Shown here piece after piece: positions 83 through 29,840 of a stretch of 29,894 nt of DNA. The notes beneath the pieces are model-generated. The model did not search any database and was not told where the DNA came from. It worked only from the letters and a program-made list of their open reading frames with translations. Position 1 is the stretch's first letter, and each line of letters opens with the position of its first letter. The DNA is from a plasmid, in the sequence record NZ_CP115547.1. One strand, written 5' to 3'. The position numbers and the translations under genes were made by a program.

Positions 83-99
83 AATTCACAAATTAGGAG
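83..99 (+). promoter_or_regulatory. Conserved leader AATTCACAAATTAGGAG (includes the RBS), copy 1, before the PF-57-like gene
   Basis: Identical 17-mer at 3601..3617 and, reverse-complemented, at 29824..29840. Copies 1 and 3 continue identically through TTTTAT-ATG. Confidence 0.6.
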
Positions 100-105
100 T
101 TTTAT

Positions 106-1215
106 ATGAGGAGCATAAAAAAAACTATCAACAAATATCAAAACAAACTAATAGTTTTAATATCAACACTAAACTACATGAACACAACCTTTGAACAATA
201 TACTCAAAACGACATACTTCACTACTTTAACGGAAATATGAAAAGAAATGGTCAAAAACCTATTAAACTTAAAACACTACAAAACTATTTATACAAATTA
301 GAAAAAATATTCAAGGTAACTAATAACTACCACAGACATTTGGGTGTAAACATGGGAACTGAGATTTATTACTCACTTAAATACACTAAAAAAGAATGTT
401 ACCGCATCATCAATAAACACTTTAGAGATAAAAAAAAGAACAGATATAAAAATCGTGTTAATGATTACCTTAAAAAGACTTGTGTAAAAAATGGGAGTGT
501 AGAAAAATGGGAGTGTTCTTATAATATATATAATAATAAAAAAGAAGAAGAAAATAAAAAGTCTATAGAAAAACTACAAGTAGAAAAATACGCTAAAAAA
601 TGTGATTTTAAGTCAAAGACTTTCCTCTCTATTTTTAATCTAAAAGCAGAAAAAAATGTTATGATTGAAATGTTAAAAGTGGTTAAAAGGACAGAAAACT
701 TCTTTGTAAACAACAACAAAAACGGAAAAATTGATGGTATCAAACCCAAAAAAAGTAAGCTTGAAAGCAAACAGCAAGAATTAAGTAGAATACTGTATGA
801 AACAAAGATTAGCTTAAAAAATGAAGGATATGACATTAAACAATTAGAAATACAGATACAAAAGATATATGAACAGTACAAACACAAACCACATTTTGTC
901 ATAGAAAATAACAAGTACAATGACTTAAGGAATATAATAGCGAAACTTAAAAAATCAGTTGAGTACGTTAAAAAGAGCACAAGAGACGATGAAAAAAATA
1001 TTAGGAACAACATATTTAGCATACTTCTTGAACAATTAAGGCATAAATTAGACATTGAAGTCTTAGCACCAATACTAAAAAAGTATTTAGATAAACAAAA
1101 TAAATTAGAGTATAAAAAGGTATTTAATAACCAATATTACCACGAACTTTTAGAGTTAGTAAAAAATAAAGAAAATTATTTAAGATTAGGAGAATGTGCA
1201 AAACTTGTTACTTAA
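106..1215 (+). CDS. Borrelia PF-57/62-family plasmid replication protein (lysine-rich, 369 aa)
   Basis: The N-terminus (KLIVLISTLNYMN...) and size fit the PF-57/62 family. It is first in the conserved order PF-57, PF-50, PF-32, PF-49. AGGAG lies 6 nt upstream and the shared 23-nt leader precedes it. Confidence 0.55.
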   Translation: MRSIKKTINKYQNKLIVLISTLNYMNTTFEQYTQNDILHYFNGNMKRNGQKPIKLKTLQNYLYKLEKIFKVTNNYHRHLGVNMGTEIYYSLKYTKKECYRIINKHFRDKKKNRYKNRVNDYLKKTCVKNGSVEKWECSYNIYNNKKEEENKKSIEKLQVEKYAKKCDFKSKTFLSIFNLKAEKNVMIEMLKVVKRTENFFVNNNKNGKIDGIKPKKSKLESKQQELSRILYETKISLKNEGYDIKQLEIQIQKIYEQYKHKPHFVIENNKYNDLRNIIAKLKKSVEYVKKSTRDDEKNIRNNIFSILLEQLRHKLDIEVLAPILKKYLDKQNKLEYKKVFNNQYYHELLELVKNKENYLRLGECAKLVT

Positions 1216-6220: not shown

Positions 6221-7030
6221 TTATAATTTTACCAGCACTGGAACCCTATTTCCGCTGATATACCCACGCTTTTGTATATACCATCCCCTTAGAACTGGAC
6301 ATAAGATATCTATAAAAGCATTCCTAGCAGAGTAATAATATATTGTTGACTTTTGTGATTGAGAAGAATATTCAAGAGTTACTTTTTTGATGTAGTTAGA
6401 AGACCCAGCATTAATTGTAATATCAGCATAAATATCTAAGTAAATGGGTTTCTCATCATCAGATTCATAAAAAACAAGCCTTACCTCTTGAGTTGAGTAC
6501 TGTGAGGTCATATCCAGTACGTAAGCTTGGTTTTTAAGAGAAGACACATAAATATATGTGCTTGAAGTTTTACTCTTTGATGTAGTAAATCCAGAAGGTA
6601 TTCCCGTTAAGTATTCAGGTATTTGTGCGCGTTGTAGAGAGCTGTAACTTGATGTAACAAAGTAATTATCTTTGCTTAAGGTGTAAGTTGAGAGCCCACT
6701 ACCAAGTTTGTCTTTAACTTTACTATAAGTAGTTGAGATACTACTAGAATCGTCGTTTAAGAATTTGTTTAGTATTTTAGTGTAAACTTGATTGATAAAA
6801 TCGTCATTTTGTTGTAGTTCTGTAGCAATAGTACCTTTAATAATGTCTTTAAAGTAATTAAGGCCTTCTCCTTTAAAAGTTTTATCTTTAGCAGTGTTAA
6901 GGAAATTTTCAAAGGTAATAGCATTACACCCAGCATTTACATCATCAATAAGTAACAAGTGATTGTTTTCAACTTGTGTTAGTTTGTTTAGATTTTTTAT
7001 TTGAATATAATCATCTTGTTCATTACTCAT
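6221..7030 (-). CDS. Putative tail fibre / receptor-binding protein (269 aa)
   Basis: Ser/Thr/Tyr-rich low-complexity central region; last tail gene before the lysis cassette, which is the P2 gpH position. Confidence 0.35.
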   Translation of the reverse strand: MSNEQDDYIQIKNLNKLTQVENNHLLLIDDVNAGCNAITFENFLNTAKDKTFKGEGLNYFKDIIKGTIATELQQNDDFINQVYTKILNKFLNDDSSSISTTYSKVKDKLGSGLSTYTLSKDNYFVTSSYSSLQRAQIPEYLTGIPSGFTTSKSKTSSTYIYVSSLKNQAYVLDMTSQYSTQEVRLVFYESDDEKPIYLDIYADITINAGSSNYIKKVTLEYSSQSQKSTIYYYSARNAFIDILCPVLRGWYIQKRGYISGNRVPVLVKL

Positions 7031-21362: not shown

Positions 21363-21487
21363 TTAAATATTCTTTTTAAATTTATATTAGCAAATATAGT
21401 GCAATAATTAGTTTTTGCTATATGTACTTAACAAAAAAATATTATGATTTTTACAAAAAAATTTTGATTGATTTTAGAATGGATTTA

Positions 21488-24577: not shown

Positions 24578-24818
24578 ATGAAAGGCTAAGTTAAGATAGG
24601 AGATTTAAAGTTAGTGATTTAAGAGATAAGTAAAAGAATTAAGTAAAAGGGAATAAAAAAGAGAAAAGTAAACATTTGGTTAACAAGAGGGTAAGAGATA
24701 AGAATTGAGGAAAGATAAGATGCATTGCAAAAGAATAGGAGTTAAAAGATAAGATAAGGGGTAAATATAAAAGGATAGAGGGATAATAGAGGAGGATTAG
24801 ATAAAGTAGTGTATAAAT
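24578..24818 (+). repeat. ~240-bp polypurine/polypyrimidine tract (A+G ~80% on the + strand, ~2% C) with degenerate AAGATAAG-like units
   Basis: Only about 5 C residues between 24578 and 24818. The - strand ORF 24639..24827 is just the pyrimidine-strand translation. Confidence 0.7.
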
Positions 24819-24995
24819 CTTAACCACAAATACCTTAAAGTACCCTTTACTTTTATAAAAGTAACTTTAAATTAAATTTTTCTTGTACAATGAATCACTC
24901 ATAATTTTGACTTTATACTTTAGTATTTGATAAAATTGTGTTAACTATTTTTATGTATTTTTAATACCTTTAGTTAATATGTAAACAAGAATATA

Positions 24996-25751
24996 ATGAA
25001 TGATAAACTAAACTTGAAAATTAAAGAGTTGACCATACAAAATGCAAGGTTAAATGAAGAATTGTCTCTCCTTAAAAGCAAATTTATTAATGATAAGAAT
25101 ACTAAAAAAGTTAAAAAGACTATTCCAGTAAGGTTTTATCTTAATGATAAGACAATAAGACTTGTAAAGAAATGTATAGAAAAACTTAAAAGTCTTGACC
25201 CAATATCTGGTTGGTTTGTATATATCCTCTCAATTACTGGTTGTAGGGGCGTTGAACTGCAAAACGTAAAGCTTACTGATGTAACTAAAGAGAGGGGAAG
25301 TGATGGTGAGGTGTTTTATTCTTTGCGTGTTAACGTGGCAAAAAAGCGTAGTAACATCTGCATAAGGGAAGTGGTTATTAGTAAGTCTGAATTTGAATCT
25401 ATCATGAGCGTACATGAAGACTATTTTAATGCTAAGGGTAAAGACTCTAGGCGTACATATCTCTTTCAAAAAAGTAAAGTTAAATTTAAAAACAACCAAA
25501 TTAGTATAATAAAGATTTCATTGCAATTTAAGGCATTACTTAAAGCTTATGGATTTAAAGAGCGTAAATCACTACATCTATGCAGAAACATATTTATTGC
25601 ATCTCTTAAATCTCGTGGATATAATTCATTTGAAATAAAAGAGCTTATGAAATACTCCTCCACTTCTGAGATTGATAATGTTTATGGGTTATCTAGTGCT
25701 AGTAAGATTCAAGCTTACAGGGATATTAAAAACACTCTTACTTCTAAATAA
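24996..25751 (+). CDS. Small tyrosine recombinase / integrase-family protein (251 aa)
   Basis: Box I-like ITGCRGVELQNVKLTDV, HxxR box (HLCRNIFIASL) and C-terminal tyrosines (KYSS / NVYG) with spacings consistent with the R...HxxR...Y catalytic set; N-terminal coiled-coil. Confidence 0.5.
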   Translation: MNDKLNLKIKELTIQNARLNEELSLLKSKFINDKNTKKVKKTIPVRFYLNDKTIRLVKKCIEKLKSLDPISGWFVYILSITGCRGVELQNVKLTDVTKERGSDGEVFYSLRVNVAKKRSNICIREVVISKSEFESIMSVHEDYFNAKGKDSRRTYLFQKSKVKFKNNQISIIKISLQFKALLKAYGFKERKSLHLCRNIFIASLKSRGYNSFEIKELMKYSSTSEIDNVYGLSSASKIQAYRDIKNTLTSK

Positions 25752-25930
25752 CTATTATTTTTGATAAAATACTTTAAGGTAAAACAATTATTATTTTTTC
25801 ACCGTATTTTCTATCCATTTATAAGCAACAAATACCCAAAGTCGATAAACCTGGTATTTATTGCTTTAAAAAAGTTATTCGTAAATTTTAGTTATATTTA
25901 TTTTTGCTAAAATATGTTATAATGCAATTG

Positions 25931-26020
25931 ATAATATTGTGATAATTTTGAAAAAAACTCATATACCAAAAATATATGATTACCAATAAGAGCACAAGGG
26001 GAGTGCTCTTATTTATTTTT
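25931..26020 (+). ncRNA. Candidate small RNA unit 1: extended -10 promoter (TGtTATAAT, 25915..25923) to an intrinsic terminator (25987..26020)
   Basis: Promoter TTTTTGCTAAAATATGTTATAAT. The terminator is TAAGAGCAC-AAGGGGA-GTGCTCTTA followed by TTTATTTTT. There is no credible ORF between them. Confidence 0.3.
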
Positions 26021-26317
26021 AAAGAGTAAAAATAGTTTACAATATAATTTTTTTTTGATAAAAAAATTAGCATATTTTAATATGCATATATAACCATAAT
26101 TAAACAAATAATTAAGTGCAAATCTTAGATATTTGTTTAATTTATTTTGATAATTTAATGGTATAATAAGCTTTGACTTTAAAACTTAAATAAAAATTTC
26201 TTATTTTTACAAGTATTGCTTACAAAGACACTTAAGTTATTTAGGTGTCTTATAAGCACATTTAAAAACTATCAAAAACACTTCAAATAATTACTATTTT
26301 TTGCTAAAATATTATTA

Positions 26318-26400
26318 ACATCATGTTTTGTGTTTTTGTATTATTTGAATTAAATAGTATCTTTAACAGATTTAAAGGGTATCTATTTGATACCCTTTAG
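26318..26400 (+). ncRNA. Candidate small RNA unit 2: TGcTAAAAT promoter (26302..26310) to an 11-bp stem hairpin (26373..26399)
   Basis: Upstream box AACTATCAAAAACA at 26267..26280, promoter-like TTTTTTGCTAAAATATTATTA, hairpin TAAAGGGTATC-TATTT-GATACCCTTTA; no clear U-run. Confidence 0.25.
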
Positions 26401-26475
26401 GTATTCTTAATTACTTCTAACTATCAAAAACAGATTGCAATAATTATCTTTTTTTGCTAATATAATATTATTAGT

Positions 26476-26572
26476 AGCAAATTACTAATTTTGAACCTTT
26501 AACTTCATTATATTTAATTAATATTTATAATAAGAATAAATACCCAATCTGGTTTTGGGTATTTATTTTCAA
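26476..26572 (+). ncRNA. Candidate small RNA unit 3: TTGCTAATATAAT promoter (26455..26468) to a bidirectional terminator hairpin (26533..26570)
   Basis: A second copy of the AACTATCAAAAACA box at 26420..26433, and a ~55-bp direct repeat of unit 2's promoter region at about 80% identity. The hairpin AAATACCCAA-TCTGGTT-TTGGGTATTT is followed by ATTTTC and also lies 20 nt after the Dam gene stop on the - strand. Confidence 0.25.
26533..26570. terminator. Bidirectional stem-loop terminator ending the - strand Dam operon (and + strand unit 3)
   Basis: A 10 to 15-bp stem with a 7-nt loop, flanked by T-rich sequence on both strands. Confidence 0.45.
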
Positions 26573-26589
26573 ATACCTTACCTGCTAAA

Positions 26590-27411
26590 CTAAGTAATGT
26601 AATTACTAAACATTTCAAGTTGAACATAATGATTCTTTTTAATATCAATATTTGATTTATTAGTTTTGTATGATGTCCCTAGTATCTCATACTTAGTATG
26701 CCCAAACCTACTAGCTACACCAGTTGAACGAGCAATGTAATTAACGTAAAGATTATGTTTAAATAAAAGCTCTAATACTTCTGAGTCATTAAATTCACTT
26801 ATTGCAAACTGCCAATCATACTTCTTCATCTCTATAATTAAAGTTTCAAGAGAATCCAAATCCCAACCCTTATTATCATCTAATCTACCCTTAGAAATTG
26901 AATAGGGAGGATCAAGGTATACAAATGTTGAGGATACCTTATCTCTTTTTGACAAAACACTTAAAAAATTAAAGATGTCACGAGAAGTAAAGACCGCACA
27001 TTCAATCATTTCTTTAATTTTAGATTTATAAGTTCTAATCATATCCATAAATGCTCTTTTTGCATTACTTCTGCGCAAACCTATAGTTGAACTACATGTA
27101 GCATAAATAGAATATAGACTTCTTAAAACCATGTACTCTATTTTATCTTGATTCTCATTTATGATCCTATCATAAATAATAGCTTCTCTTATACGTTTGT
27201 AAAGCAATGCAGGATCTCGCCTTAGAATATAAAAAAACTTATATATAAACTTAGAATTATCATTAAGGATATTATAACGAGCTAACGGTTTTGCAAAAAA
27301 TATAGAGCCTGTACCAAAAAATCCTTCTATATATAAAGTATGTCTAGGAAAAAGATTTATAATTCTTTCTCTATACCTATACTTATCTCCTTCTCTCCTT
27401 AATAGTTTCAA
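26590..27411 (-). CDS. Dam-family (class D12) DNA N6-adenine methyltransferase, orphan
   Basis: Motif I EGFFGTGSIFF and motif IV VYLDPPY in alpha-group order; no adjacent restriction endonuclease-like ORF. Confidence 0.8.
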   Translation of the reverse strand: MKLLRREGDKYRYRERIINLFPRHTLYIEGFFGTGSIFFAKPLARYNILNDNSKFIYKFFYILRRDPALLYKRIREAIIYDRIINENQDKIEYMVLRSLYSIYATCSSTIGLRRSNAKRAFMDMIRTYKSKIKEMIECAVFTSRDIFNFLSVLSKRDKVSSTFVYLDPPYSISKGRLDDNKGWDLDSLETLIIEMKKYDWQFAISEFNDSEVLELLFKHNLYVNYIARSTGVASRFGHTKYEILGTSYKTNKSNIDIKKNHYVQLEMFSNYIT

Positions 27412-28470: not shown

Positions 28471-29817
28471 CTAACCAGCTAAAGTATCAGGAATGTACGC
28501 ATTATATGAGGTACCTAAATTAAACCCAAGATCTTCTTTACTTATCAGATACCTAAATCTATCCTTAATAGCACGCTTGGTTGTATCCAGTACAAATAGA
28601 TTACCCCCAAACCTATAATTTACATGTTCACTAAATAAATTATCTTTAAACATATTATCTATGCATAATTTAAGCTTATCTTTAATAGATTTAGTTATCT
28701 TTGCAAGTTCTAAAGCATTATCTTTCTCAATTTTATTGATCTGTGCTTGCAAATAATTAATTTCAATAAGGCTATCCTTTAAACGCTGAGTTTCTACCTC
28801 ACCAATCTCAAGTTCAATAGACTCAACAAACTCCATAAATTCAACTCTATAATCAAGTTCCGATATATTTTTATATATATAACTATCCTCAAGAATACTT
28901 TTGATATGCACACTTAACTCCTCTAAACTGGTAGTTTTAATATCAATATCAGTTTGTGCTCTTAAACGTGTACAAATGTGATTTACTTCTCTGTCTAATT
29001 CTTTTACAAATGACATTACTTTACTTATAAGATCATTATTACGTATAATTACACAGTTGATTGCTTCATTTCCTATAAGGAAGAATAGATTCCCTTTGTC
29101 TAAACCTGTACATGCCAGTTGTATTTGTACTTGAATATAATACTTAAAGAAATACCGATTATCTAAGAAATTACCAGTTTTATTATATTCTAAAATAGCA
29201 CTGCGAAGACTTAGATTATCACTACATTTAATCTCAAGTAACTCTGCCTCTCCTTGTGTATTCACAAACCACCCATCAATTGTTGAACCAACTAAAGTAT
29301 CCTCTCCATTAATCTTTTTAAAATAGTTATATTTATCTATTCCATTGGCGTATTTATTCTTATGTAGAACCTGGATATTATCGGAATATATACGAATAAA
29401 TTCATCAAAGCCTAGGGTTTCTAACATCTTACCTTTTCTCATGCTCAAGTTATCTTCAAAAGGAATTTCTCTTCCTAAAGCTTTAAGCACCTTGCCAGTC
29501 ATTAGTTTTAAGGCACTCTCTTGGCCAACAAATATACTTCCTACCTCACTTGCACCCATACGTTTTAATGATTCTCTTTGAATACTAAAATCAACTTTGC
29601 TATTAAACTTAAAGAATTCGTTCTTGGAAATATTTGGTAGCCTGCGTCCTATTCTACTTATCTTACTTGTATTTTGTTGTGTGTTCTTAACCTGTTCTTT
29701 AGTTTGATTTACAAATCCTTTATAACCTTTAAACATTGGCTGACCATAGACACTAAGATGCCCCATCCTTACCTCTACGTTGTTATCATTTGTTTTTGTT
29801 ATTTTATTTATACTCAT
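28471..29817 (-). CDS. YqaJ/lambda-Exo-family (PD-(D/E)XK) recombination exonuclease with an N-terminal ~70-aa extension
   Basis: YqaJ N-terminal motif (LKRMGASEVGSIFVG), catalytic-region motifs (STIDGWF...GEAELLEIKC) and the family's YYIQVQIQL motif. It is the likely partner of the RecT-like gene. Confidence 0.7.
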   Translation of the reverse strand: MSINKITKTNDNNVEVRMGHLSVYGQPMFKGYKGFVNQTKEQVKNTQQNTSKISRIGRRLPNISKNEFFKFNSKVDFSIQRESLKRMGASEVGSIFVGQESALKLMTGKVLKALGREIPFEDNLSMRKGKMLETLGFDEFIRIYSDNIQVLHKNKYANGIDKYNYFKKINGEDTLVGSTIDGWFVNTQGEAELLEIKCSDNLSLRSAILEYNKTGNFLDNRYFFKYYIQVQIQLACTGLDKGNLFFLIGNEAINCVIIRNNDLISKVMSFVKELDREVNHICTRLRAQTDIDIKTTSLEELSVHIKSILEDSYIYKNISELDYRVEFMEFVESIELEIGEVETQRLKDSLIEINYLQAQINKIEKDNALELAKITKSIKDKLKLCIDNMFKDNLFSEHVNYRFGGNLFVLDTTKRAIKDRFRYLISKEDLGFNLGTSYNAYIPDTLAG

Positions 29818-29823
29818 ATAAAA

Positions 29824-29840
29824 CTCCTAATTTGTGAATT
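29824..29840 (-). promoter_or_regulatory. Conserved leader AATTCACAAATTAGGAG, copy 3, before the exonuclease operon
   Basis: The reverse complement is identical to 83..99 and is followed by the same TTTTAT spacer and ATG (29817). Confidence 0.6.

Follow-up and report, generated by a model that had tools for sequence, protein, structure and literature searches.

Predicted small non-coding transcription units arrayed between a recombinase gene and dam on a Borrelia miyamotoi cp30 prophage plasmid

An intergenic array between int and dam

The window analysed here, the whole 29,894-nt stretch of record NZ_CP115547.1, is a Borrelia miyamotoi cp30 plasmid, a cp32-like prophage. Its gap at 25752-26589 runs exactly from the stop codon of int (25751) to that of dam (26590). 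int is annotated as a tyrosine-type recombinase in identical plasmids. dam closes the early operon, which converges on int and comprises a DUF244/YqaJ exonuclease gene, two small ORFs, DUF261 and dam itself; it stops at the last hairpin of the array described below. G+C content is 20% in the gap and 29% in the window.

An earlier reading of the letters alone, hereafter the sequence-only reading, had called the gap non-coding, and this held: no annotation falls in it among the matching plasmid records listed, and its ORFs have no protein-family match in PHROGs or NCBIfam. Rfam 15 at gathering thresholds returned no match anywhere in the window, and a search of the gap at E up to 10 gave nothing credible, its best sub-threshold match scoring 22.6 bits against a threshold of 80. 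No tRNA or tmRNA was found. Short-word BLAST of the gap against the whole window scored internal repeats alone, and no array unit is antisense to a plasmid gene. The features are as follows.

24996..25751, + strand: int, tyrosine recombinase gene (BppC-like), matching Pfam Phage_integrase at 30.6 bits
25758..25871, + strand: U0, head TTTTTGATAAAAT directly 3' of the int stop, with TG at 25762-25763 and predicted -10 TAAAAT at 25765-25770
25901..26020, + strand: U1, two predicted extended -10 elements, TGCTAAAAT (25905-25913) and TGTTATAAT (25915-25923)
26049..26149, + strand: Ux, degenerate head TTTTTTTTGATAAAAAAAT and palindrome GCATATTTTAATATGC at 26070-26085
26145..26258, + strand: Uy, TTTTGATAATTT and a perfect extended -10 match, TGGTATAAT (26159-26167)
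26264..26402, + strand: U2, box 26267-26280, predicted -35 TTCAAA at 26282-26287, 17-bp spacer, TGCTAAAAT at 26302-26310
26416..26572, + strand: U3, box 26419-26432, predicted -35 TTGCAA at 26435-26440, 17-bp spacer, TGCTAATAT at 26455-26463
26590..27411, - strand: dam, DNA adenine methylase, last gene of the early operon
29864-29851, - strand: exonuclease promoter-type motif TTTTTGCTATATAT, 34 nt upstream of the DUF244/YqaJ start

The gap holds six head-plus-hairpin modules. The three units counted by the sequence-only reading are all present, but the total is not three: U0, U1, Ux, Uy, U2 and U3 follow one another at head-to-head spacings of 143, 148, 96, 153 and 153 nt (about 150 nt). The promoter motif on which that count relied lies on the + strand throughout, as TTTTTGCTAAAAT at 25901 and 26298 and as TTTTTGCTAATAT at 26451, and its direct repeats are likewise in place, the box AACTATCAAAAACA at 26267 recurring unchanged at 26419 and a 32-nt repeat (26286/26439) keeping 84% identity.

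Both motif and hairpins are concentrated far beyond expectation. On the + strand, the 838 nt contain motif TTTTGNTAWNWT five times where 0.14 would be expected, the highest count in 2000 simulations being two; across the window it occurs 13 times against 3.4 expected, and eight of the 13 copies are intergenic. Three of the window's five perfect hairpins with a stem of at least 10 bp lie inside the gap, which makes up 2.8% of the sequence; chance would give about 0.1 such hairpins in all 29.9 kb. Intrinsic terminators of the canonical kind are fairly scarce in Borrelia (PMC10319736), which makes this cluster of strong hairpins unusual. The stem-loop motifs of Delihas 2009 are other elements than the array hairpins.

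The modules differ in how they end. Terminator-like hairpins stand at 25985-26013, 26370-26402 and 26535-26567, as had been claimed; the stem followed by a T-run is found in units 1 and 3, and the unit 2 hairpin lacks one (3 T in 8). U1 has a small hairpin at 25959-25979 ahead of its intrinsic terminator at 25985-26013, whose T-run reaches 26020 (fold z = -3.0), giving a predicted RNA of ~90-100 nt. In U2, the promoter at 26282-26310 is listed in the promoter scan with TG present, the 5' body at 26313-26341 is nearly invariant, and the fold z-score is -4.5. U3 carries a body hairpin at 26471-26488, and its terminal hairpin is followed on the + strand by a T-run. On the - strand this hairpin terminates the dam operon as well, and the terminator scan lists it as a - strand terminator.

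The remaining modules recur elsewhere. U0, with an imperfect hairpin at 25818-25871, is an extra 143-nt module between direct repeats TTATTTTTG(A/C)TAAAATA; a homologue lies 3' of an int remnant on lp97, and most paralogues lack it. Ux has a long A/T-rich hairpin at 26098-26142 followed by TTTATTTT (7 T downstream; z = -3.7), and its body and hairpin occur behind intact heads in L002 and on lp64. Uy, common to the same two, ends in a hairpin at 26217-26258 (inner stem 26225-26251; z = -3.4) and has no T-run. Overall, a U-tract follows the hairpin in U1, Ux and U3 and is missing from U0, Uy, U2 and U2'.

Predicted promoter heads and the int gene end

All heads share one sigma-70-type layout, in which an A-tract box precedes a -35-like hexamer and a 17-bp spacer leads from there to an extended -10 element, TGnTAnnnT. 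Fifteen internal heads are free of coding constraint. In all 15, TG is fixed, as are the -10 positions T1, A2 and T6; the base that follows TG may be C, T or A, and a -35-like hexamer (TTCAAA, TTGCAA, TTAACA, TTGATG and others) sits exactly 17 nt upstream. These invariant and variable positions form the pattern expected if promoter function is selected. At the level of sequence, the array heads vary like genuine sigma-70 extended -10 promoters, and each unit has its own predicted promoter.

The heads are homologous to the end of the recombinase gene. Those of U2 and U3 are ~46-nt copies of the last codons of int, its stop codon and the U1 promoter (alignment z = 5 to 8.6), and in the canonical paralogues the -35 hexamer of U1, TTGAAA, is the last two sense codons of int. 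The heads share common descent, so that finding them repeatedly does not count as independent evidence of function.

The same type of motif appears at other prophage genes. It lies 5' of int at 24907-24936, the top row of the generic promoter scan, in the PF-57/DUF244 divergent region (29880 and 1) and close upstream of the portal gene. The claim that the exonuclease operon uses the array promoter type was borne out by TTTTTGCTATATAT, found on the - strand where expected, and equivalent motifs stand upstream of DUF244 in the European cp30-7 and in B. burgdorferi cp32-9. A promoter of the nucP/ssbP operon, a homologous operon, was reportedly described by Chenail et al. 2012. The generic scan itself returned 14 matches in the real and 15.4 in shuffled DNA, and in B. 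hermsii it also gave strong-looking - strand sites. B. burgdorferi promoters rely on the -10 box, with slight conservation at -35 (PMC5314773).

Conservation across paralogues and species

Unit 1 is conserved in position across relapsing-fever Borrelia. Positional orthologues occur in B. miyamotoi, B. turicatae, B. hermsii, B. coriaceae and B. persica, the last represented by fragmentary contigs that were the sole return of a recombinase search of genome contigs. In these five species the motif starts 7-9 nt past the int stop and the first + strand hairpin or terminator follows at +68 to +117, built from at least five unrelated stem sequences. The promoter-hairpin layout described by the sequence-only reading is kept for unit 1, but the hairpin sequences are replaced rather than covarying. 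For hairpins inside the array, only the + strand has the T-run; the terminal one is bidirectional and, in every species, stands where the - strand operon stops. An uninformative scan of viral contigs with a degenerate DNA pattern gave 115 matching stretches, on environmental and other viral contigs.

Within B. miyamotoi, conservation is block-wise. Most cp30 paralogues carry exactly three units in 427-483 nt, a layout found in Asian, European and American isolates, and other species have one to three units. Mean identity among six canonical paralogues is 96.6% for U1; for U2 it is 94.7% in the 5' body and 96.2% in the hairpin among paralogues. Across paralogues, identity reaches 94-97% in U1, in the 5' end and hairpin of U2 and in the U3 head, against 88-93% in the int coding sequence. 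The U3 body is 66% identical and comes in three or more unrelated versions. Paralogues have exchanged RNA bodies, and the unit-1 body is very different from one species to another. Block similarity could be maintained by gene conversion among co-resident paralogues, with no selection on an RNA.

The array is absent from B. burgdorferi cp32 (Lyme group) and from the B. turcica plasmid, both of which have the same flanking genes. There, int and dam are separated by 14 nt (B. burgdorferi cp32-9) and 32 nt (B. turcica).

Structural comparison gave a limited signal of strandedness. One-sided stem changes in U2 are of the G-U type on the + strand, and across 27 distinct hairpins G-T mismatches number 16 against 10 for A-C, overall indecisive, the + strand lean being confined to U2 and Uy. 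Covariance was not found: none of 26 U2 pairs has a two-sided change in a within-species alignment that holds too little variation, and no compensatory base-pair change occurs inside B. miyamotoi. A cross-species MAFFT alignment of unit 1 yielded no consensus structure and no pairs from RNAalifold, because MAFFT could not bring the non-homologous hairpins into register.

Probable small RNA genes and competing interpretations

On balance, we lean towards reading the gap as a head-to-tail + strand array of small, independently transcribed non-coding units. The six units are most likely small RNA genes with promoters copied from the end of the int gene. Between the two possibilities first raised, a small RNA array or an iteron-like origin, head variation, the occurrence of this motif type near prophage genes, the position of unit 1 and block conservation best support the former, and the latter is not supported by the evidence given below. 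We infer that the promoters fire and that discrete RNAs of ~90-100 nt accumulate and act as regulators. Control of prophage or host genes would be the most plausible role for these putative RNAs, and the related promoters of the units suggest co-regulation.

Unit 1 would be the ancestral member. Its canonical -35 (TTGAAA) would come from the last two sense codons of int, its -10 would fall a few bases past the stop, and the unit would end at the first terminator downstream. With its own promoter and that terminator, unit 1 would be a 3'-UTR-type small RNA sharing its 3' end with the int mRNA. DapZ and MicL of enterobacteria are 3'-UTR-type small RNAs transcribed from a promoter of their own that lies within the last part of the preceding coding sequence. 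Unit 1 resembles them in the origin of its -35, the place of its -10 and its use of the first downstream terminator. It differs in that its parent is a prophage recombinase, that no chaperone-binding features or seed can be defined and that its body is not conserved between species.

The other units may have arisen by duplication of the ~46-nt head made up of the int 3' end and promoter. Unequal or inter-plasmid recombination between heads would then add, remove and swap units among co-resident cp30 prophages, and the last unit would stop at the bidirectional terminator in which the convergent early operon ends too. Listeria LhrC1-4 and Pseudomonas PrrF1/PrrF2 are tandem small RNA genes, each with a promoter and a terminator. 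The cp30 array shares with them the head-to-tail order, units of ~100-150 nt and a promoter and hairpin in each. In those systems it is the bodies that are homologous; in the cp30 array homology is limited to the heads and some hairpins, and unrelated bodies can be exchanged.

Recombination of this kind could also have left little of function behind. The array may be largely debris plus ordinary terminators, unequal crossing-over between cp30 paralogues having duplicated the int 3' end, with hairpins that merely insulate the convergent int and early-operon transcripts and incidental transcription from the heads. We regard this as unlikely. It would explain why the heads are copies of the int end, why unit number and content vary and bodies are swapped, why in every species the - strand operon ends in a bidirectional terminal hairpin, why Lyme-group cp32 and B. 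turcica manage without the region, and why a search for targets gave no result. However, promoter-critical positions are invariant in unconstrained heads where neighbouring bases vary, and U1, the U2 5' end and the hairpins are conserved like int or better. Three units are kept across B. miyamotoi and one to three elsewhere, the motif stays fixed at +7 to +9, and insulation needs just one terminator. Should the units prove silent, the region would be a recombination-scrambled terminator zone.

The target search concerned pairing between the putative RNAs and plasmid mRNAs. The sequence-only reading had proposed that unit 1 pairs with the PF-57 and exonuclease leaders. The complementary 9-mer ACTCATATA is indeed present at 25957-25965, but the pairing did not stand: the match is weak, at least two matches arising in 7 of 100 shuffles, and these leaders are not among the best duplexes of unit 1. 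Most paralogues have ATACATATA in place of ACTCATATA, and one plasmid of this kind has other sequences in the two leaders, without complementarity. RNA duplex folding of each unit against 41 translation-initiation regions of the plasmid gave none that beats shuffled controls, the controls being mononucleotide shuffles and the search covering this plasmid rather than the chromosome. The RNA bodies are the least conserved part of the array, the opposite of typical seed-driven small RNAs.

Diversification of the bodies might itself be the function. The heads would then be co-regulated operator-promoters, and the bodies a diversifying small RNA repertoire that the roughly ten co-resident cp30 prophages deploy against each other or against incoming relatives, an RNA-based form of immunity or competition. 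Such a system would follow a logic like that of P1/P7 c4 or P4 CI, its array being a recombination-shuffled set of cassettes that grew out of the int 3' end. We consider this distinctly unlikely.

Precedents for RNA genes in such positions come from other prophages. Lambda oop, P22 sar, P1/P7 c4, DicF and AgvB/AsxR are prophage-encoded small RNAs or ORF-less moron-like modules. The array resembles them as a set of ORF-less, putative promoter-terminator modules in intergenic DNA beside prophage early or recombination genes; it differs in having no sequence or Rfam similarity to them, in not being antisense to plasmid genes and in comprising several units that vary among paralogues. Downstream of int in phage lambda, tI and sib serve termination and retroregulation. 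The array has in common with them a strong hairpin at a short, conserved distance past int, but tI/sib needs no promoter between int and hairpin and no array, and the array bears no sign of RNase III processing.

A role at the DNA level is very unlikely in our judgement. The heads would be binding sites for a plasmid or prophage protein, making up an operator array, a sink for a regulator, a partition-like site, or a lytic replication origin activated by transcription; the origins of phages T7 and T4 have tandem promoters beside A/T-rich DNA. Several features fit. Each head holds an inverted pair, TATCAAAAA upstream and TTTTTG(A/C)TA downstream; a - strand copy of the motif lies 23 nt away in B. 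turicatae, B. hermsii and B. coriaceae; two inverted copies form TTTTGTTAAAATTAACAAAA at 1-20, beside the GC-skew minimum; the gap is A/T-rich relative to the window; and the bodies vary freely, as expected if RNA sequence is immaterial. Yet base variation in the heads follows the RNA-polymerase consensus and not a palindromic operator, the hairpins and + strand T-runs are left without a role, and B. burgdorferi cp32 lacks the region despite having the same replication and early genes.

The iteron-like origin proposed at the outset is not supported. Iteron origins (P1 oriR, F oriS, pSC101) and the array are alike in their direct repeats within A/T-rich non-coding plasmid-prophage DNA; they differ in repeat length and spacing, initiator, skew switch and the absence of the region from cp32. 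The array repeats are ~46 nt long and spaced 96-153 nt apart, not short (about 17-22 bp) and phased, and their neighbours are int and dam, with no adjacent initiator gene. Cumulative GC skew has its minimum at ~29 kb / position 1, on the PF-57 side, and only a local bump at 24-26 kb, with no switch in the gap. The B. turcica plasmid also lacks the region. Nor does the gap correspond to pac (cp32, phiBB-1): the match to the B. burgdorferi segment falls at 24888-24978 (E = 6e-6), on the upstream side of int. The pac-containing region of cp32 phiBB-1 has been mapped upstream of erp (PMC11008901).

Unit 2 contains an ORF that could make it an mRNA, leaderless or with a short leader, for a hydrophobic peptide of 21-25 aa (MFCVFVL...), a type I toxin-like or membrane micro-protein with the neighbouring units as its regulators. 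Its ATG at 26323 lies 12 nt past the -10, neither a 3-nt indel nor a loop inversion closes the frame, one B. persica contig has an ORF in a comparable position, MVFFVVSFISVVNRGF, and short or absent leaders are documented in B. burgdorferi (PMC5314773). Even so, we judge the peptide highly improbable: all variant differences are non-synonymous, the lp64 copy is frameshifted at the C-terminus, the ORF has neither a Shine-Dalgarno sequence nor a family match, a second B. persica copy has a different body and no ATG, the hydrophobic stretch is shorter than a membrane helix needs, and by our own estimate a 24-codon open frame arises by chance in about 9% of cases in such A/T-rich, A-poor sequence. 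A type I toxin-antitoxin pair is not supported, the U2 ORF showing no trace of purifying selection and the - strand promoter-like sites inconsistent between species.

That the heads are attP-like or integron-like recombination sites of the adjacent tyrosine recombinase, and the units captured or exchanged cassettes, is an equally remote prospect, for although the array adjoins the recombinase gene, unit number varies, bodies are swapped and paralogue unit boundaries fall at the head motif (as with the 143-nt U0 insertion), homologous recombination between 46-nt heads gives the same boundaries, no core-type inverted repeat around a 6-8 bp spacer was found to be conserved, the recombinase persists in B. 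burgdorferi and B. turcica beside a gap of only 14-32 nt, integrated copies on lp64, lp66 and lp97 run continuous across the region and are not broken there, the would-be cassettes have promoters but no ORFs, their hairpins are unlike attC sites (consensus compared by eye), and the 251-aa recombinase reaches 26 bits with the Xer/integron-type model, whose cut-off is 220.

Read as small RNA genes, the units bear on how these prophages are controlled. To our knowledge, no repressor has been defined for Borrelia cp32/cp30 prophages, and the control of their lysogeny, induction and paralogue coexistence is largely unknown. Strong, conserved predicted promoters for small non-coding transcripts, placed between the recombinase gene and the early recombination/replication operon, offer a concrete, testable candidate for one part of prophage control in relapsing-fever species. 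We found no study of small RNAs in relapsing-fever Borrelia in the literature searched, so the predicted transcripts are candidates for the first small RNA genes of this group. The array would also exemplify how new small transcription units arise, from a promoter made partly of a gene's last codons, duplicated and joined to unrelated bodies.

A gap between convergent transcription units

The gap at 25752-26589 runs exactly from the stop codon of the tyrosine recombinase gene int (25751) to that of the DNA adenine methylase gene (26590), and both transcription units converge on it. The 2.4 kb around it are 100% identical to B. miyamotoi cp30-type circular plasmids such as pIzh-5-cp30-11, annotated as a cp32-like prophage. 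That annotation places on the plasmid the PF-57/50/32/49 maintenance genes and a RecT/ERF gene, a long - strand late operon (terminase, portal, holin), mlp and tyrosine recombinase genes, and a - strand early operon of DUF244/YqaJ exonuclease, two small ORFs, DUF261 and the methylase.

The gap is built from promoter-like starts (heads), intervening bodies and hairpins. Every sequence feature listed in the sequence-only reading is present. Its three units (U1, U2, U3) stand as described but are an undercount, as three more modules of the same design (U0, Ux, Uy) bring the total to six, ordered U0, U1, Ux, Uy, U2, U3 along the + strand at spacings of 143, 148, 96, 153 and 153 nt.

Features of the array
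25758-25871: U0, extra module
25901 and 26298: TTTTTGCTAAAAT, promoter-type motif
26049-26149: Ux, extra module
26145-26258: Uy, extra module
26267 and 26419: 14-nt box, two identical copies
26451: TTTTTGCTAATAT, promoter-type motif
25985-26013, 26370-26402 and 26535-26567: terminator-like hairpins
34 nt upstream of the exonuclease gene, - strand: TTTTTGCTATATAT

The motif and hairpin features of the gap are beyond chance. Its + strand has five matches to the relaxed motif TTTTGNTAWNWT (0.14 expected) and the whole window has 13 (3.4 expected; 8 of 13 intergenic); three of the window's five perfect hairpins with stems of at least 10 bp fall inside the gap. A 32-nt repeat in the gap has 84% identity. 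Predicted unit RNAs all fold better than shuffles (z -2.2 to -4.5); the three units that were also folded on the - strand do likewise there, being palindromes. The hairpins of U2, Uy and U0 lack a U-tract.

Heads as copies of the int end

An alignment of all heads, taken from the window, from eleven further B. miyamotoi loci and from five other species, revealed where they come from. U2 and U3 begin with a ~46-nt copy of the last codons of int, its stop codon and the unit-1 promoter; alignments to the int end are gapless and ~80% identical (z = 5 to 8.6), and no shuffle scored as high. The box previously noted at -45 is thus homologous to int coding sequence.

As promoters, the heads have every element: TGnTAnnnT is preceded, across exactly 17 bp, by a -35-like hexamer, which in canonical unit 1 is TTGAAA and is formed by the final two sense codons of int. 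Across 15 internal heads without coding constraint, the TG and -10 positions 1, 2 and 6 are invariant, while C, T or A follows the TG and -10 positions 3-5 vary. As read from these alignments, such variation is a signature of selection for RNA-polymerase recognition, not of common descent alone. Motifs of this type also stand upstream of int (the top row of a generic promoter scan), of the exonuclease operon and of the portal gene, and occur in the region upstream of PF-57. A European cp30 and B. burgdorferi cp32-9 have one ahead of the exonuclease gene too. Mapped 5' ends of B. burgdorferi primary transcripts show a conserved -10 box and a little-conserved -35 (PMC5314773).

Related elements occur elsewhere on the plasmid. 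A candidate operator or origin-associated element is TTTTGTTAAAATTAACAAAA at 1-20, which comprises two inverted copies of the head motif TTTTGNTAA and lies upstream of PF-57 beside the cumulative GC-skew minimum. Between bdr and portal in the late operon, 21384-21440 (-) carries three T-rich, TG-containing promoter-like motifs, one of which, TATTTGCTAATAT, stops 22 nt short of the portal start, suggesting a putative internal promoter.

Arrays across plasmids and species

Unit number varies among arrays. In most cp30 paralogues the gap spans 427-483 nt and comprises exactly three units; American isolates likewise carry three, despite the absence of the methylase gene. The window and one Yekaterinburg plasmid carry extra units, and the copies on lp64 and lp97 contain four to six. 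The distance from the int stop to the motif start is 7-9 nt in B. miyamotoi, B. turicatae, B. hermsii, B. coriaceae and B. persica, with a hairpin after it at +68 to +117. Stems across species comprise at least five unrelated sequences (AAGAGCAC, AAGGACACC, AAATACCTAAG, AGAGGC, ATGACTTAAG). T-runs of internal hairpins, where present, are confined to the + strand. In each array the final hairpin is preceded by an A-run and followed by a T-run, and so reads as a two-way terminator shared with the convergent operon. In B. venezuelensis and B. duttonii a promoter-like box and a terminator are present but the head motif is missing, and no such gap exists in B. turcica (32 nt) or B. burgdorferi cp32-9 (14 nt).

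Mean pairwise identity among eight B. miyamotoi arrays
Unit 1 (six canonical copies): 96.6%
U2 5' end: 94.7%
U2 hairpin: 96.2%
U3 head: 93.8%
int coding sequence: 88-93%
U3 body: 66%, at least three unrelated versions

Structural differences between arrays have both ends at heads; the 143-nt U0 insertion is bounded by TTATTTTTG(A/C)TAAAATA. Separately, three hairpin loops are exactly inverted relative to paralogous plasmids with stems kept (25996-26002 and 26548-26554 against L007, 26384-26388 against L004; CAAGGAG/CTCCTTG, TCTGGTT/AACCAGA and CTATTTG/CAAATAG), a pattern suggestive of DNA-level template switching mediated by hairpins. The B. hermsii cp30-2 gap (L014 3265-3441) has near-consensus - strand promoter-like sites in a generic scan (TTGACA-17-AATAAT, TTGATA-18-TATAAT), one directed into the int 3' end; antisense transcription of int or unit 1 may follow from these predicted sites.

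Small RNAs, debris or DNA elements

We lean towards reading the gap as a series of small transcription units on the + strand. On this view int would have a 3'-UTR-type sRNA, unit 1, whose own promoter lies across the stop codon; later units would join a duplicated head to other bodies, and the last would stop at the terminator shared with the early operon. Recombination between 46-nt heads, both within and between the many co-resident cp30 plasmids, would account for units being gained, lost and swapped. We infer transcription, RNA size and any regulatory role from sequence.

The chief internal point against sRNAs of the classical seed-driven type is the poor conservation of the predicted RNA bodies, which keeps two alternatives alive: the array could be recombination debris around ordinary terminators, a possible but doubtful reading, or the heads could function as DNA, in protein binding or in an origin-related role, which we consider improbable. 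The iteron-like origin proposed earlier lacks support, as the repeats are unlike iterons and the cumulative GC-skew minimum lies at the PF-57 end, not the gap. A micro-peptide in unit 2 is very unlikely: differences in its 21-25-codon ORF are all amino-acid-changing, the lp64 copy is frameshifted, and gap ORFs have no PHROGs or NCBIfam matches. We give equally little credence to recombinase-mediated cassette exchange. Against an att site, prophage copies integrated in linear plasmids are continuous across the gap, and species without the gap have the recombinase.

Pairing of unit 1 with the PF-57 and exonuclease leaders, suggested previously, found no support. ACTCATATA, one arm of a small internal unit-1 hairpin in B. 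miyamotoi (CAUAUA...UAUAUG), has complementarity to the start region of the exonuclease gene and, across 8 nt, to that of PF-57. As many matches arose in 7 of 100 shuffles, and unit 1's best duplexes include neither leader. Most paralogues have ATACATATA instead, one of them with both leaders different and non-complementary. Complementarity of any unit to the plasmid's 41 initiation regions never exceeded shuffled controls. The leaders themselves form a long-range inverted repeat: the divergently transcribed PF-57 and DUF244/YqaJ genes have the same 26 nt of leader, ribosome-binding site and start, TTCACAAATTAGGAGTTTTATATGAG, at 85-110 (+) and 29813-29838 (-). One European cp30-7 plasmid has other leaders at both genes, and these again resemble one another.

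Homology to a known packaging site also lies elsewhere. The experimentally mapped B. burgdorferi cp32 pac region lies upstream of erp, 5' of the recombinase gene (PMC11008901), and its window homologue, 24888-24978, is outside the gap. This is the sole window segment significantly similar to the cp32-9 region upstream of int (74% over 94 nt), and, because that region holds the published phiBB-1 pac site, it is the better candidate location in which to seek a cp30 pac site. Between mlp and int, 24578-24810 is purine-rich and almost C-free (2.1% C), with the window's two longest C-free runs (86 and 90 nt). In B. burgdorferi cp32-9 (L012 ~6590-6950, bdr-DUF244), three ~25-nt direct repeats, TTTAAATTCTC(T/A)TGTTAAAGA, unrelated to the B. 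miyamotoi array, lie in a 470-nt gap upstream of the exonuclease gene.

Prophage promoter-terminator sRNA modules, tandem sRNA arrays and sRNAs whose promoters sit within the end of the upstream gene are known kinds; here the promoters are repeated rather than the RNAs, an unusual twist. No Rfam family, tRNA or tmRNA was found in the gap, and the array, without an Rfam homologue, is not mentioned in the literature searched. As a prediction from sequence, it gives studies of prophage control in relapsing-fever Borrelia a concrete point of entry.
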